Shown one piece after another: positions 1,336-6,070 of a stretch of DNA of 6,070 bases; the stretch's first letter is position 1, and every line of letters begins with the position of its first letter. The position numbers and the translations under genes were made by a program. This stretch comes from a virus. Under the pieces are notes generated by a model. It saw nothing but the letters and a program-made list of their open reading frames with translations, was not told where the DNA came from and made no database searches. The DNA is taken from IMG/VR virus record IMGVR_UViG_3300029495_000074; one strand, given 5' to 3'.

Positions 1336-3033
1336 TTACAGTTTGTACAAGCCCGGTACGCTGTACAAAGGTATCCGTCTTGTGGTCTTGTTTGCTACGC
1401 GGATTGCGCCAAAAAATTGCGGCTCGTCCTGTACGATGAGCGTGCGTGCAATTTCTTCTTTTCCTTCTGTCATCCATTCTTGCGACAGTGTCGGTACAGT
1501 CGAGTAGTTGTCGGCGTAGTGCCAGAAGTCCAGCGGACCTGTCGCGTTGCTTCTCATTTTGCCGGATACGCGGTTAGGCTTCATTCGATAGTCTGCCCAA
1601 GCTTCTTGGTAACCAAATGTTTCTTCGTCTGTTGCTTCTCCGGTCAACATGATTTCCTTTTTCTTCACAGGCTGTTCGCCCAAGTTTGCAAACTGAGGCA
1701 CGTAGTAGTCTAACCTGTCCGTTCTGCTCCAAAAACGTTCCAGGCCTTGCTGGTAACTGTGATTGTGTCGCACACAACAGACACCGATTACGAACCCGTG
1801 TTCCTCAAAGGACTTTGTAAAACTGCTTTCGTTGATGGGTGTTACTGACATTGCGCCAGTTTCGCCGATCGGCGTGTCTGTGTCGCTTTTCTGTCCGCTG
1901 GTTTGTACGATCTGGTTCATGTTGACGCGGTATCTGCCACCGCCCAGGTACTCCGGTACTTGTACTGTTTTATCCGAGATTACCACATCCCATAGTGCCT
2001 GTACCTGCTCACGGTATCTGCTACCACCTCTTGCCAGCGCTTCGTAATATTGCTGTACTGCTACGGCTTTTCGCAAGTCGTTGATTGTTGCGGCGGAGAC
2101 TGATGCGAGGTCTGCGCCTAGGTATACTACGCTGTGTTCCGACCCCGTTCCGTCTCCAATGGCTAAGTATGCTGATCCTGTGCCTCCATCTTCTGCGATT
2201 GCATACAGTTTGTCTTTGATATTGGTCGGGTTTGTGTTTCCGTCATGAAAGCTGTTTACATATAGAGGTGCTTTTTCGTTAAATTTGTCACTTGTGTATC
2301 CGGTTATTCTTGCATTACCTTGCATCGGCAGCATTACTTCTGGCCCGCGCTGCGGATACGGTAAGCAGCTGGTAAAGTAGTCGTGGAATTTGCTGACCGG
2401 TAAACAATAGCCCCCTTTGTATGCGTTTTTTAGTCTATTTTCAATTGTTGCTTCTTTTTCGTTTATTCCGCTTTTTGTTCCTGTGTCGTAAACCACATCT
2501 TGGCTTGCCGTTTGGATTGTTGCTGCGTTTTCAACGTTTTCGTCTCTGAAAAATTCATTCCATATTTTTACGTATGCTCTGACTGGTAGTGCGTTGATAG
2601 CGAATGTGTTCTTTATTTTTGTCGGCACTCCCATGTAGTCAAGGATAGTTCCTTCCGCTGGTTTTGGAATTCCTCCTCCTGTTACGGTTATCACAATTTT
2701 TGGTACTTTGTAATTTTTTTCTGGCATCCAAGGTGTGTCTTCTACTTCTCCCATGAATTTTTTGAAGTCATCCCATAAAATGCGGTTGGGACAATAGAAA
2801 TAATAGAAGTCAATGAATGCATCATCCATCACCGGATACTTTGGCGTGGTCATTCTTATGATTGCGCTTGTGTCTACGCTGAACGTATCGCCTGGAAGCA
2901 CTTCGTCCACGTAGAACGGAATCAGTTTGCCGGCATCAAACGTTGTTAAAATCGTCTGGTCACGGTTGAATCTTGTTCGACTTGCTTTCATTTCTGGGAT
3001 TTGGTTGAAGTGCCGTTCATTGTTTCGATTCAC
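1336..3033 (-). CDS. VP1: Major capsid protein VP1 (F-like jelly-roll), 565 aa, GTG start.
   Basis: Size and N-terminus are typical of the Microviridae MCP: ...HFNQIPEMKASRTRFNRDQTILTTFDAGKLIPFYVDEVLPGDTF.... The start codon is GTG (plus-strand cac 3031..3033) with AAGGAGG 7 nt upstream. GTGA overlaps the VP3 stop. Confidence 0.95.
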   Translation of the reverse strand: MNRNNERHFNQIPEMKASRTRFNRDQTILTTFDAGKLIPFYVDEVLPGDTFSVDTSAIIRMTTPKYPVMDDAFIDFYYFYCPNRILWDDFKKFMGEVEDTPWMPEKNYKVPKIVITVTGGGIPKPAEGTILDYMGVPTKIKNTFAINALPVRAYVKIWNEFFRDENVENAATIQTASQDVVYDTGTKSGINEKEATIENRLKNAYKGGYCLPVSKFHDYFTSCLPYPQRGPEVMLPMQGNARITGYTSDKFNEKAPLYVNSFHDGNTNPTNIKDKLYAIAEDGGTGSAYLAIGDGTGSEHSVVYLGADLASVSAATINDLRKAVAVQQYYEALARGGSRYREQVQALWDVVISDKTVQVPEYLGGGRYRVNMNQIVQTSGQKSDTDTPIGETGAMSVTPINESSFTKSFEEHGFVIGVCCVRHNHSYQQGLERFWSRTDRLDYYVPQFANLGEQPVKKKEIMLTGEATDEETFGYQEAWADYRMKPNRVSGKMRSNATGPLDFWHYADNYSTVPTLSQEWMTEGKEEIARTLIVQDEPQFFGAIRVANKTTRRIPLYSVPGLYKL

Positions 3034-3428
3034 TTTTCTCCCTCCTTTGCTTCAGGTTCTGCTTTTGTTTTTTCCGCTTCCATTTTTTTTAGCTCTTCAA
3101 GCTTCATTGCGTTTGCTTGTGCGGTTGCAATCATGCGGTGGTACTCGTGGATGTTTTGCGGAAATTCGGTAATGTCTGTGTATGTACCGTTTAATGCTCC
3201 TTCTGATAAACTTTTAAGAAACTGTGGGTCAAAACTTGCTTTTCGGACAATGCTTTTGATATCGCATTCGTCTGCATAGCTTTCGATTTCTTGTTGGATG
3301 TCGATTGGTGCAGTTTCTTGGAGTACTTCTTGTCCTTTTTCGTCTTTCGTCCAGACGTATTGCTTTCGGAATTTTTCTCCGCTTTCAGAAAAGAAGGGCT
3401 CGCGCCCTTCTTCGTATCGTTTATTCAT
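3030..3428 (-). CDS. VP3: Internal scaffolding protein VP3 (132 aa).
   Basis: It lies immediately upstream of VP1, as in gokushoviruses. It is acidic and helical with a Lys/Glu-rich C-terminus. The start was chosen at ATG 3428 because GGGAGGG lies 8 nt upstream and the ATG overlaps the VP5 stop (ATGAATAA). The longer track ORF to 3548 lacks a usable SD. Confidence 0.7.
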   Translation of the reverse strand: MNKRYEEGREPFFSESGEKFRKQYVWTKDEKGQEVLQETAPIDIQQEIESYADECDIKSIVRKASFDPQFLKSLSEGALNGTYTDITEFPQNIHEYHRMIATAQANAMKLEELKKMEAEKTKAEPEAKEGEK

Positions 3429-3660
3429 TCGGCTTGCCCTCCCATGTTTTTTCCTTTTCGTTTGTAAATTCGCCGGTTTCGTCTTCAAAAACCGCCAGCT
3501 TAAAGCCGGTATAGTCGCCTGGCGCCTGTCCAACAAACGTTTTTTCATCCTTTGCCATAACGTTGCACATTCGTGCGAATGTTGCGTTGTTCTTGCTCTC
3601 TCCTACCCATGCATAGCATTTTGCCACGCTGTCCCACAAGCCGAAATATTCATGCTTCAT
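3421..3660 (-). CDS. VP5: VP5-like nonstructural protein (79 aa).
   Basis: MKHEYFGLWDSVAKCYAWV...ATFARMCN...PGDYTGFKLAVFEDETGEF matches my recollection of the gokushovirus VP5 pattern (x-D-S-K-A-x-x-Y near the N-terminus, D-F/Y-T-L-F-E-L-G-x-F-D-x-x-T-G later). The AAAGGAGAG SD lies upstream of ATG 3660. Its position upstream of VP3 is syntenic. Confidence 0.7.
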   Translation of the reverse strand: MKHEYFGLWDSVAKCYAWVGESKNNATFARMCNVMAKDEKTFVGQAPGDYTGFKLAVFEDETGEFTNEKEKTWEGKPNE

Positions 3661-4534: not shown

Positions 4535-4759
4535 TCATCCTTTCGTTATCTTGTCAATTTCTGATGCGGGATACGTGGCGTAATCTGTGTATGTTATGGT
4601 GTTTAAGATTTGGCTGTCTCGATCGTTGCGCCCGATCAGGTACTCGTCTGTACCGTCTAAGTAATCTATAACGTATTTGTTGCCATATTTTGTCGTTCTT
4701 TTGCTTTCGCCTTTTTTTATCATGTCAATTAGGACTTTTTTTAGATCTTTTTTTCTCAT
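4535..4759 (-). CDS. Hypothetical protein (74 aa), first gene after the promoter.
   Basis: The ORF begins about 40 nt downstream of the predicted transcription start, after a purine-rich leader (GAAAGAAGTGAAAC). It has a basic N-terminus (MRKKDLKKVLIDMIKKGESKR) and a likely beta-rich remainder. Its stop lies 6 nt before the peptidase ATG. I recognise no family. Confidence 0.55.
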   Translation of the reverse strand: MRKKDLKKVLIDMIKKGESKRTTKYGNKYVIDYLDGTDEYLIGRNDRDSQILNTITYTDYATYPASEIDKITKG

Positions 4760-4807
4760 TTTGTTTCACTTCTTTCTTTTTTTTGAGGTTTCTCTCTCTC
4801 TTTTTGT

Positions 4808-4836
4808 ATTATACCACTTTATGCTTTTTTTTGCAA
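4808..4836 (-). promoter_or_regulatory. Near-consensus sigma70/sigmaA promoter with an extended -10, driving the whole minus-strand operon.
   Basis: The minus strand reads TTGCAA (4836..4831), a 17-nt spacer ending in TGG, then TATAAT (4813..4808), i.e. TGnTATAAT. It lies at the downstream edge of the noncoding region, directly upstream of the first ORF. Confidence 0.75.
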
Positions 4837-5002
4837 GTGAATGTTTTTCATCTTAGCGTTAATCGTTTTTTAGTCTTGACTTTCATAGTTTGTTCATTTT
4901 TGTTGCTGGTCTTGCTCCTTTGTTTTGAATGCGCTTTAGCGCTCTTCCGTGCGTAGCGTATGCGGAGCTCGGATAATCCATTCATTGTAAGCGCTGTGCG
5001 CG

Positions 5003-5169
5003 TTTTCAACACTTTCAACAGTTTCAACAGGTTTTCAACATAAAGTTGCACAAAGGTTTTCGTCATTTTGACGGACTTTCAACAATTCAACAAGTTTTCA
5101 ATAAAACTTTCAACAGTGTTTTTTGCTTTTTATTTACGCTTTAGCGTTAAATTTTAGTACTTTTCAACT
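5003..5169. repeat. Array of nine direct yTTTCAACA repeats (TGTTGAAAr on the coding strand): two clusters of four plus one outlier.
   Basis: The 9-mers start at 5003 TTTTCAACA, 5012 CTTTCAACA, 5021 GTTTCAACA and 5032 TTTTCAACA. After a 35-bp spacer holding a CGTCA-TTT-TGACG mini-hairpin (5061..5073), they continue at 5076 CTTTCAACA, 5084 AATTCAACA, 5095 TTTTCAATA and 5107 CTTTCAACA, with an outlier at 5161 TTTTCAACT. Spacing within clusters is 8 to 12 bp. Confidence 0.85.
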
Positions 5170-5253
5170 TTTCCACTACCTCTACTACTACTCCTACAAC
5201 AAGTTATATATTATACGGCGCTTGTGAGCTTGCGAACAATAGCGCCTAAGAGC

Positions 5254-5296
5254 CGCGCGTGCGCGCGTGCGCGCTTCGCGCGCGTGCGCACGTGCG
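5254..5296. other. GC-rich alternating pyrimidine-purine (CG/TG) inverted repeat: a 20-bp hairpin and Z-DNA-prone tract.
   Basis: 5254..5274 (21 nt) and 5277..5296 (20 nt) each alternate Py-Pu perfectly. On the plus strand 5254..5273 pairs with 5296..5277 as 17 Watson-Crick plus 3 G-T pairs with a CTT loop. On the minus strand the three wobbles become A-C mismatches. Confidence 0.8.
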
Positions 5297-5318
5297 ATAA
5301 GAGATAGCTATTTGATAG

Positions 5319-5358
5319 ACCTAGCCCAGTATCTTACTTGATAGGTACTGGGCTAGGT
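5319..5358. other. Perfect 13-bp inverted repeat (stem-loop) 16 nt downstream of the Rep stop. Candidate origin or terminator structure.
   Basis: ACCTAGCCCAGTA (5319..5331) pairs with TACTGGGCTAGGT (5346..5358). The 14-nt loop is TCTTACTTGATAGG, which can tighten to an 8-nt loop TACTTGAT through three further pairs (5332-5345 G-T wobble, 5333-5344, 5334-5343). Confidence 0.8.
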
Positions 5359-5373
5359 GACACTATGACACTG

Positions 5374-6070
5374 TTAAAGTGTCCCTCTCTTCTTCGTTTG
5401 CTTCTTGATTACTCTCTCCCTCGTTTTACACTGTTCTGCAAAGTCTGTGTTCTCATACTTTAGCCGGTTTTCTGCTATCGCTGCTTCTTGTCTGTTCTGT
5501 TTAATTCTCCACAATCTTTGTGGGTTTTCAGCTTCCATTTTCTTTTCATAGTATCGTGGTATCTGCGCGTGCTTTCCGTTTGTACACTGTATATAGCCTT
5601 GTCTCCAGATTTCTGCTTTGTGTTTTTCGTAATAGTTGTCTCCTAAACCCGGCTTTAGGCTCATACATGCAAATGGTTTTGCTTGCCCTAGCTCGTAGTA
5701 TGCGTTTGCTTTTTGACCGTCTATCTCATACATTTTTTTTGTGACGTATCCAGCAACATATCTATATGTTTCCGGCACTGCTTGTGCTATCTGTATTTGA
5801 CCCATGCCCCATAGGTCTGCTAGCCATTTACTTGTAAAGTATCCGTTGTGTTGTATCTTGTATAGGTGTTCTAGGTCTGTTGGTTGCCATCCATACAAGA
5901 TCATGTGGTAATGTGGTCTTGCTGTCTGTTCTCCGTATTCTCCCGCTACAAAATAGCGTAATTTGCCCCTGTAAGCCTTTCTGAGCCGTTTTAAAAATTT
6001 TTGAACGTCAGGATACAGTAACGTTTGGACGCTTTCAGGGCGCTTCTCTCCCGGCTTCCAGACGTATTGC
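5374..6070 (-). CDS. VP4: Replication initiation protein VP4, C-terminal part. 5948..6070 duplicates codons already listed in 1..123.
   Basis: The track ORF 5374..5904 stays open upstream to the window end: ...RYFVAGEYGEQTARPHYHMILYGW... It carries the HUH motif (HYH) and the catalytic tyrosine region YRYVAGYVTKKMY. The stop TAA is at 5374..5376. Confidence 0.9.
   Translation of the reverse strand, partial: QYVWKPGEKRPESVQTLLYPDVQKFLKRLRKAYRGKLRYFVAGEYGEQTARPHYHMILYGWQPTDLEHLYKIQHNGYFTSKWLADLWGMGQIQIAQAVPETYRYVAGYVTKKMYEIDGQKANAYYELGQAKPFACMSLKPGLGDNYYEKHKAEIWRQGYIQCTNGKHAQIPRYYEKKMEAENPQRLWRIKQNRQEAAIAENRLKYENTDFAEQCKTRERVIKKQTKKRGTL
5948..6070. repeat. Terminal direct repeat, copy 2 (redundant with 1..123).
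   Basis: Same 123-nt string as 1..123, so position 5948 is equivalent to position 1. Confidence 0.95.

Follow-up and report, generated by a model that had tools for sequence, protein, structure and literature searches.

A candidate host-type, DnaA-targeted origin module beside a putative rolling-circle origin in a gut gokushovirus

The basal unwinding system (BUS) of the chromosome origin oriC, described in Bacillus subtilis and found across bacteria, consists of DnaA boxes, DnaA-trios and an AT-rich element (PMC8287927; Richardson 2016/2019; Pelliciari 2021). It has been searched for as a box with at most two mismatches, a spacer of 0-16 bp and at least three trios (3'-NAN-5', consensus 3'-GAT-5') (PMC8287927). 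In Firmicutes, the strand complementary to the trios carries the DnaD recognition element, which comprises two or more 5'-TnnT-3' motifs (PMC10201434), and the DnaA-trio of C. difficile is CACCTACTACTATTACTACTATGA (PMC7561715). Here we describe an element of this layout in the large noncoding region of a virus genome, IMG/VR record IMGVR_UViG_3300029495_000074; the whole stretch analysed, 6,070 nt, is called the window. It holds the genome of a gokushovirus-like microvirus, and the element lies beside the gene for its replication initiator, Rep (Table 1). The plasmids P1 (oriR), F, pSC101 and R6K have a few canonical DnaA boxes together with iterons of their own initiator, and are not known to have a complete box-trio module.

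Like the BUS, the phage module has tandem boxes on the same strand, a short spacer, at least three trios, an AT-rich element and TnnT motifs opposite the trios. Unlike the BUS, it lies in a 5.9-kb rolling-circle single-stranded DNA (ssDNA) phage and not next to dnaA/dnaN; its AT-rich element is short, a heptamer, CAACAAG, is inserted before the AT-rich run, a GC palindrome follows, and its activity is putative. Because it lies in a phage noncoding region by Rep and not beside dnaA/dnaN, we treat it as an oriC look-alike and not as an oriC. As in the DnaA-box plasmids and phage T5, host DnaA boxes are found in the noncoding control DNA of a mobile element, but here the whole host-type module is present and the sole encoded initiator is an HUH nickase. 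As at the double-strand origins of HUH Reps (phiX174 gene A, pMV158, pT181, CRESS-DNA viruses), a covarying stem, a conserved loop and short repeats lie beside Rep; unlike phiX174, the genome has no match to the 30-nt origin, the origin lies outside the Rep gene and the nick site is putative. In kind, the element is a DnaA-dependent origin module of a known sort in a new setting, with phage-specific additions. We consider it probable that 4906-5383 is a two-part replication control region, namely a composite origin that recruits host DnaA. The first part (5003-5216) is, with good probability, a phage-borne look-alike of the host chromosome origin, and we regard a DnaA-targeted, origin-like module as very likely. 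The second part (5319-5383) is probably the phage's own rolling-circle origin, where the HUH Rep would bind and nick.

The first part contains ten TTTCAACA-type boxes, all on one strand (5003-5177). Six exact and three one-mismatch copies of TTTCAACA lie on the + strand within 5004-5169, and no exact copy occurs elsewhere in the genome. A G-free tract on the + strand (5158-5202) is followed by AT-rich GTTATATATTATA. The sequence-only reading had listed a nine-copy array, a G-free tract and an AT-rich element, and all of these are present; beyond that reading, they together form the layout of a bacterial chromosome origin. The last box is followed by a 4-nt spacer and five trios, in the same orientation and with the same spacing as in host origins, and an AT-rich element, shorter than in hosts, lies distal to the trios. 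The ten same-strand boxes are of the probable host's own type. Opposite the trios, the + strand CTACTACTACTCCTAC has four overlapping TnnT motifs, and these trios are of the same type as CACCTACTACTATTACTACTATGA of C. difficile. TTTTCAACA in the window also resembles a DnaA box. Canonical DnaA-box scoring was tried as well; alone it fails to flag the array, and the link to DnaA arose only from the same repeat in host origins.

We scanned one genome per GTDB species for three consecutive boxes. The at least 120 loci obtained were heavily enriched in Ruminococcus, Oscillospiraceae and Acutalibacteraceae, and at least 21 of the arrays adjoin dnaA and/or dnaN. In Ruminococcus flavefaciens (locus L162), the arrays fill the 1.5-kb dnaA-dnaN spacer, and rnpA and yidD lie upstream, which is the canonical origin context. 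Fifteen dnaA-dnaN spacers (13.3 kb in total; L162, L092, L096, L111, L120, L133, L134, L138, L156, L169, L177, L182, L203, L205 and L207) contained 299 copies of TTTCAACA, 248 of them on the dnaN-sense strand, 45 copies of TTTCCACA and only 2 of the canonical TTATCCACA. The coding DNA that flanks these origins (33.7 kb) contained 5 copies of TTTCAACA. The dnaA-dnaN origins of Ruminococcus and Oscillospiraceae are built almost wholly of (T/C)TTTCAACA, a box variant that was new to us.

The host spacers end upstream of dnaN with two tandem boxes, CCCC, (CTA)4-5 and an AT-rich run longer than that of the phage. Box type, box spacing, spacer length and trios of the Ruminococcus origins are identical in the phage module. 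The R. flavefaciens sequence ACTTTTCAACTTTTCCAC-AGCCC-CTACTACTACTACTA shares its 18-mer, 4-nt spacer and trios with 5159-5196 of the window; ACTTTTCAACTTTTCCAC, just upstream of dnaN in that origin, matches the window at 18 of 18 positions. Furthermore, a profile built from 17 host origins alone found its best match in the phage genome at 5156-5210 (E 1.5e-5), with box cluster I second. Smaller elements are also shared: AAAGTTGCAC of the inter-cluster element occurs in the R. flavefaciens origin, TAGCGTTAAATT is common to the window and L162, and host origins have a palindrome of 12-14 bp (e.g., GTCCATATATGGAC, GGCTATATACAGCC) at the place equivalent to the mini-palindrome between the box clusters and the unwinding module. 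In host locus L207, CGCGCGCGCGTG follows the AT-rich element.

No microvirus VP1, VP2 or Rep is encoded in loci L088-L167, and among the at least 120 host loci listed VP1 matched only in L193 (CALBJK010000280.1, a 'Prevotella' metagenome-assembled genome (MAG)); this locus is a complete gokushovirus genome (~5.8 kb) that was placed in the Prevotella bin. Integrated copies were therefore not seen; apart from this mis-binned locus, the host loci listed contain no microvirus genes. In L115 (CAYWPN010000018.1, an 'Alistipes' MAG), DnaA is 71% identical to that of Ruminococcus. The MAG bins of L193 and L115 look mis-binned and misleading for host assignment.

The module is widespread in small phages. 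A sensitive search of GenBank phages revealed 56 records that match the region, many of them only over 5002-5215 of the window. In KT264784, MT121961 and KX513876, VP2 and Rep flank the block, whose orientation relative to the genes is reversed, and Rep is only 39% identical to that of the window; overall the module is kept in genomes with Reps 39-56% identical to it. A scan of viral contigs for three boxes gave at least 120 matches, nearly all of 5-6 kb. The complete arrangement of two boxes, spacer, trios and AT-rich run was found in 139 of 160 small genomes (Rep 45-96% identical to that of the window). It runs antisense to the genes in 102 of them and sense in the other 37, among which six have a Rep at least 90% identical to that of the window. 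In all, about 140 microvirus genomes have the module, with Reps 39-96% identical to that of the window. Five close relatives missed by the pattern do carry the block, cut by contig ends. Since the block is kept across divergent initiators and in either orientation, it appears to be the target of a host factor acting on duplex DNA; the two orientations also argue against a structural role of the repeat block on the packaged single strand.

Conservation within the module is uneven. In 138 distinct blocks, boxes (0.91) and trios (0.92) are more conserved than inter-box DNA (0.72), and the box-trio spacer is the least conserved. This is the pattern expected if both boxes and trios are functional units. 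Box positions of cluster I show the same difference (0.91 vs 0.72 between boxes). The AT-rich element is AT-rich in all 138 blocks, and its sequence varies (0.76). Within the whole noncoding region, phages conserve no motif as highly as CAACAAG, which has CAAG(T) in common with the loop of the Rep-side hairpin and is absent from host origins and from the copy in a tailed phage. The inter-cluster element is conserved in close relatives and in KX513876/MT121961-type phages, and its central palindrome, CGTCATTTTGACG, is conserved, like segment 4906-5002, within sub-groups only. Canonical tandem TTATCCACA boxes were found in no microvirus (tblastn) among 120 viral contigs listed, PLSDB plasmids gave no match to the block, and no paper that connects microviruses to DnaA boxes or to elements resembling origins turned up in full-text literature searches.

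Three contigs are of separate interest. L243 (IMGVR_UViG_3300045988_134603, a 39-kb contig) is a tailed phage (tape measure, Dit, minor tail and head proteins) with a host-type module on the reverse strand at ~6690-6900: about ten boxes, then two boxes, GCCCC, CTACTACTA and an AT-rich run, without CAACAAG. L038 (IMGVR_UViG_3300045988_004182, a 10.7-kb contig) has two unwinding modules of different sub-types on opposite strands and may be a dimer or chimera of two microviruses. In L005 (IMGVR_UViG_3300045988_086966, 8,781 nt), the microvirus genes from the peptidase through Rep, with the hairpin, are joined to tailed-phage genes for head morphogenesis, portal and terminase; it has no boxes, the junction comes right after the hairpin, exactly where the GC palindrome would begin, and it is probably an assembly chimera.

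To compare the region in close relatives, 80 IMG/VR genomes with a Rep 88-96% identical to that of the window were fetched, and the DNA downstream of Rep was compared by blastn and MAFFT. Nearly all of them have positions 4906-5360 of the window in conserved form. In 60 close relatives, identity to the window is 0.876 over segment 4990-5216 as against 0.724 at third codon positions of Rep, and the segment has the higher value in 55 of the 60 genomes. As the segment is more conserved than the third positions of Rep, the noncoding block is under purifying selection. The sequence-only reading had suggested that the region is a composite control region, for replication, priming or regulation, and no mere spacer; this was to be abandoned if no element was conserved among close relatives or if a conserved coding frame appeared. 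The alignment with related microviruses, the comparison it had called for, shows 4906-5373 to be conserved, no conserved frame was found, and the proposal is supported for this part; the left 145 nt, with the promoter, are lineage-specific. All the elements it had listed, from the promoter, palindromes and array through the G-free tract and AT-rich element to the hairpins and the GACACT set, are where it had placed them. For two of them there is a caveat. The promoter matches the consensus on the minus strand and is not conserved in relatives; as it is located in the non-conserved part, this candidate depends on the consensus only. The TAGCGT-containing palindromes are present (the hexamer lies at 4854, 4954 and 5142 in the region), but TAGCGT is not enriched genome-wide, with 5 copies observed vs 2.9 expected and 31 of 200 shuffles reaching 5. 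Besides the copy at 4954-4959, segment 4906-5002 contains the mini-palindrome GCGCTTTAGCGC (4931-4942) and GGATAATCC. Further left, 4535-4905, which comprises the 74-aa open reading frame (ORF) and the promoter region, has no counterpart in any of 61 close relatives and looks like a slot for variable cassettes, with the conserved origin block on one side and the peptidase gene on the other.

The second part of the region is the Rep-side hairpin with its repeats. The hairpin at 5319-5358 folds strongly as ssDNA on either strand (z about -5.5 to -6) and is ~99% identical among close relatives. It was found in 118 of 160 genomes with 35 distinct stems, all of them perfectly paired through compensated changes between lineages, and in these the loop motif CAAG[T/G]AAG is kept, as is GGTGTCA on the 5' side. 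All Rep lineages have GGTGTCA(C/A) ahead of the hairpin. The hairpin is always on the Rep-sense strand and its site is always an end of the Rep gene. The covarying stems, the conserved loop and the flanking GTGTCA repeats suggest that this is the Rep nick origin; a compensated stem with a conserved loop beside the rep gene is also how a rolling-circle double-strand origin is recognised. Thus, the hairpin is likely a rolling-circle origin with a Rep-binding repeat and a putative nick site. An origin of the phiX174 type was rejected: the 18-nt core of its 30-nt origin (CAACTTGATATTAATAACACTATAGACCAC) gave no match in the genome with up to 3 mismatches, and the 8-mer ACTTGATA of the antisense loop is not conserved in other groups.

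The polarity of the strands is in line with this assignment. Four-fold sites of VP1 have a strong A>>T bias, with the same sign in all groups whichever orientation the block has, which fits the hairpin, and not the block, setting strand polarity. These skews give no support for a packaged strand whose polarity flips with the block. In VP1 (1336-3033) and its homologues, sense-strand four-fold sites are ~48% A and 11% T in the close group. The viral strand of phiX174 is T-rich, opposite to this A-rich bias.

Between the two parts lie an optional insert and the GC palindrome. The insert folds no better than shuffles. The GC palindrome at 5254-5296 folds as + strand ssDNA with -27.7 kcal/mol (z -4.8), and in 94 of 141 phage genomes the AT-rich element is followed by a comparable GC run of varying sequence. 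Possible roles of the palindrome are to limit the unwound region, to take up superhelical stress or, since it forms on either strand, to act as a priming hairpin on single strands. This palindrome, the 13-bp hairpin and the GACACT set had all been noticed in the sequence-only reading, and the ssDNA folds of both hairpins are indeed strong compared with shuffles.

The mechanism we propose follows the established Firmicutes initiation model (PMC8287927, PMC6669920, PMC10201434). Host DnaA would bind the boxes on the double-stranded replicative form (RF), oligomerise onto the trio strand and open the AT-rich element. DnaD would recognise the strand opposite the trios, and the host helicase and primosome (DnaD, DnaB, DnaI and DnaC in Firmicutes) would be loaded at the opened site, so that the RF would be replicated or primed in a DnaA-dependent manner. 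We infer that a firing origin or a helicase/primosome loading site is the single most likely function of the module.

Several points weigh against such a composite origin. We know of no microvirus that requires DnaA, and rolling-circle replication needs just Rep and the host helicase and polymerase. At C6, which is usually conserved, the box departs from the relaxed consensus TTWTNCACA, and with at most 1 mismatch allowed this E. coli-derived consensus is matched at only 3 sites in the block; the assignment of TTTCAACA as a DnaA box draws on the setting of the repeat in genomes of uncultured bacteria. With 13 bp, the AT-rich element is short, and GC-rich hairpins flank it closely. The invariant CAACAAG, which is absent from host origins, indicates that the module is no plain copy, and with it the module may have a further or different phage-specific function. 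No long, high-identity match to any sampled host origin was found (62-70% over the repeats), and from similarity at the motif level convergence would look the same as an old capture. A recent capture from a sampled host was rejected on the same grounds. Finally, the hairpin, mostly 40-170 nt beyond the AT-rich element, is downstream of that element in 104 of 121 genomes and on the other side of the array in 6, and these six indicate that there is no rigid geometry between hairpin and block.

The boxes might bind DnaA without firing. In that case a high-copy RF would titrate DnaA and prevent initiation in the host, or occupancy by DnaA would modulate the transcription of Rep or of the operon. 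The evidence for host-type boxes fits this equally well, and in genomes of the KT264784/MT121961 type the Rep start follows directly downstream of the module. DnaA boxes with roles outside origins occur in other phages, for example in the injection-stop region of T5 (bioRxiv 866236). However, a sink or operator needs the boxes alone, whereas the tandem boxes, the 4-nt spacer, the trios (0.92) and the AT-rich layout are kept as strictly, in a geometry identical to that of the host; distance and orientation to promoters are not conserved. We therefore regard a pure sink or regulatory site as unlikely.

It is still less likely that DnaA merely assists nicking, by melting that frees the top strand for the HUH Rep at CAACAAG|TTAT as the real or a second nick site (candidate substrates CAACAAGTTATAT and CTACAACAAGTTATAT). 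Together with the DnaA sink or regulator, it is nevertheless an alternative to be taken seriously. In its favour, CAACAAG is nearly invariant in phages (0.99) and is found neither in hosts nor in the tailed phage; the DnaA filament would occupy the other strand (geometry in PMC10201434), and the heptamer has CAAG(T) in common with the hairpin loop. Against this, the module flips relative to the genes and the VP1 A>>T asymmetry does not, the phiX-type origin sequence is not found in the genome, and the hairpin with the GTGTCA repeats, whose polarity relative to the genes is kept, is a more conventional rolling-circle origin. The heptamer loosely resembles what we take to be the phiX174 site, CAACTTG|ATATTAATAAC.

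It is very improbable that TTTCAACA is an iteron bound by the Rep of the phage itself, in the way known from rolling-circle plasmids and CRESS-DNA viruses. Direct repeats near a stem-loop in a Rep-encoding replicon would suit it, but the repeat is unchanged across Reps 39-56% identical, dominates host chromosome origins, and occurs in a tailed phage without such a Rep; its distance and orientation to the hairpin vary, and GTGTCA repeats already flank the hairpin.

The single-strand origins (ssoA) of Gram-positive rolling-circle plasmids have an RSB and CS-6 (TAGCGT) in a hairpin loop, on the displaced strand and in a fixed orientation, and the region likewise has TAGCGT mini-palindromes and strong hairpins in noncoding DNA. 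A complementary-strand origin, in which folds of the packaged strand recruit RNA polymerase, primase or PriA and TAGCGT serves as CS-6-like ssoA signals, must exist somewhere in the genome and could draw on the strong ssDNA hairpins at 5254-5296 and 5319-5358, the three TAGCGT copies and a near-palindromic GC hairpin that forms on either strand, but as an account of the box/trio block (direct repeats in both orientations relative to the genes) it is scarcely credible, and TAGCGT is not enriched, lies on the antisense strand and has one copy in the non-conserved spacer; this evidence concerns the box block and not the GC palindrome. An ssoA/CS-6 assignment was rejected on the same TAGCGT evidence and the varying orientation of the block. 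A dif/XerCD site was also rejected. Kirchberger and Ochman reportedly described, in 2020, dif-like XerCD sites in lysogenic enterobacterial gokushoviruses, and an AT-rich core in a noncoding region is found here too. TATATATTAT matches the centre of what is presumably the Firmicutes dif consensus; the flanking arms mismatch and the exact VP1 was found only on ~6-kb contigs.

The composite origin thus remains our preferred explanation, and it has consequences for the host. It suggests that the phage recruits the host initiator DnaA, and the module also points to a Gram-positive host in Ruminococcus/Oscillospiraceae. In the textbook view, microvirus replication combines a phage nickase with host elongation enzymes, and a conserved DnaA module would add the host initiator. 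It is possible, although we hold this only tentatively, that a large gut gokushovirus clade acquired a working Ruminococcus/Oscillospiraceae unwinding module, so that its RF has both a DnaA-fired and a Rep-fired origin. If so, a lytic-type ssDNA phage without an integrase could replicate like a minichromosome in step with its host and be carried in the manner of a plasmid. Another possibility is that melting by DnaA makes the invariant CAACAAG accessible to Rep. To our knowledge, gut gokushoviruses have no lysogeny, and such a state would offer these abundant phages a mechanism of persistence. The host-type module in the unrelated 39-kb tailed phage would then make origin mimicry general among phages of these bacteria, and such mimicry could become a general signal for phage host prediction. 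For the human and pig gut microvirus clade, whose hosts have been in question from Roux et al. 2012 onwards at the latest, the module gives a sequence-based host assignment. Roux et al. speculated from the M15 peptidase that some gut gokushoviruses infect Clostridiales (PMC3394797), and the present result independently supports this speculation. For host biology, the comparison exposes the non-canonical DnaA box (T/C)TTTCAACA that dominates the origins of these bacteria.

Table 1. Features of the noncoding region, genes of the window and the host origin used for comparison
Feature	Position	Strand	Description
Lineage-specific spacer	4760-4905		5' leader of 74-aa ORF and promoter region; no blastn match in 61 relatives; low MAFFT column identity
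Sigma-70-like promoter candidate	4836->4808	-	TTGCAA, 17 nt, TGgTATAAT; 10 of 12 consensus matches, extended -10; faces operon
Segment kept only in close Rep group	4906-5002		identity to relatives 0.80; matches of distant groups start at ~5002
DnaA-box-like cluster I	5003-5040	+	four direct (T/C/G)TTTCAACA boxes, 9-10 bp spacing
Inter-cluster element	5042-5073		AAAGTTGCAC, then perfect palindrome CGTCA-TTT-TGACG (5061-5073); hairpin z -3.6
DnaA-box-like cluster II	5076-5115	+	four direct boxes: exact at 5077, 5108; one-mismatch at 5085, 5096
Mini-palindrome ACGCT-TT-AGCGT	5136-5147		between box clusters and unwinding module
Tandem boxes of unwinding module	5161-5177	+	TTTTCAAC-TTTTCCACT; TTTTCCACT at 5169-5177
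4-nt spacer ACCT	5178-5181		last box to trios; most variable module columns in phages; GCCC or CCCC in hosts
Five DnaA-trios	5182-5196	-	+ strand reads CTA CTA CTA CTC CTA; minus strand 3'-GAT GAT GAT GAG GAT-5'
CAACAAG heptamer	5197-5203	+	phage-specific; 0.99 conserved over 138 distinct blocks
AT-rich element TTATATATTATAC	5204-5216		presumed DNA-unwinding element; 13 bp A/T with one C
Optional insert GGCGCT...AGCGCC	5217-5246		in about half of close relatives (alignment indel)
GC-rich alternating purine-pyrimidine inverted repeat, (CGCGCGTG)n	5254-5296		prone to cruciform or Z-DNA
Stem-loop, candidate Rep nick origin	5319-5358	-	13-16 bp arms; sense loop CCTATCAAGTAAGA
GTGTCA/GACACT repeats, candidate Rep-binding site	5359-5383	-	three GACACT copies; overlap Rep stop codon
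Rep/VP4	446->1 joined to 5947->5374	-	Pfam PF23343, phrog_942; HUH motif RPHYHMILYG; 3' part 5374-5947
VP2 pilot protein	1297->443	-	
VP1 capsid protein	3033->1336	-	Phage_F, E 7e-136
VP3, Chlamydia-phage-type scaffold protein	3030-3548	-	
VP5 (ORF5-like protein)		-	
Basic protein		-	41 aa
M15 peptidase	4528->4136	-	
74-aa ORF	4759->4535	-	
Host origin	L162:5367-6850		dnaA-dnaN spacer of R. flavefaciens

The window consists of a circular genome of 5,947 nt plus an exact terminal repeat of 123 nt (1-123 and 5948-6070), which is the overlap of a circular assembly, so that Rep is divided between the ends of the window. All recognisable genes lie on the minus strand, several of them overlap at start and stop codons, and the genome also codes three small ORFs. 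The nearest GenBank relatives are human and pig gut gokushoviruses (~83% identity), and contigs with the exact VP1 are from the human gut only and ~6.0 kb long. The gap at 4760-5373 is the sole large gene-free stretch, bounded exactly by the Rep stop codon (5374-5376) and the ATG at 4759. It was known from the sequence-only reading as a region of 614 bp, about 10% of the genome, between the Rep stop and the first operon gene and without a convincing ORF, and we find the same (614 nt, 10.3%). Scans of the region for tRNA/tmRNA found none, and an Rfam scan at E <= 1 gave no match. Some depositors and gene callers annotate the largest ORF in the gap, 5066->4848 (72 aa), which has neither a Shine-Dalgarno sequence nor a family match. 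In relatives its ATG is kept in 50 of 61, its length ranges from 13 to 96 aa and its frame shifts after about residue 26; its N-terminus is conserved because the repeat array gets translated. This sole candidate for a conserved coding frame is thus lost or shifted in relatives, and a hidden gene was rejected since start, frame and length are not maintained.

The longest ORF of the scaffold protein has 172 aa, and on identical contigs gene callers start it at 132 aa. The PHROG match of this protein starts at residue 41, and its true start is probably an internal ATG.

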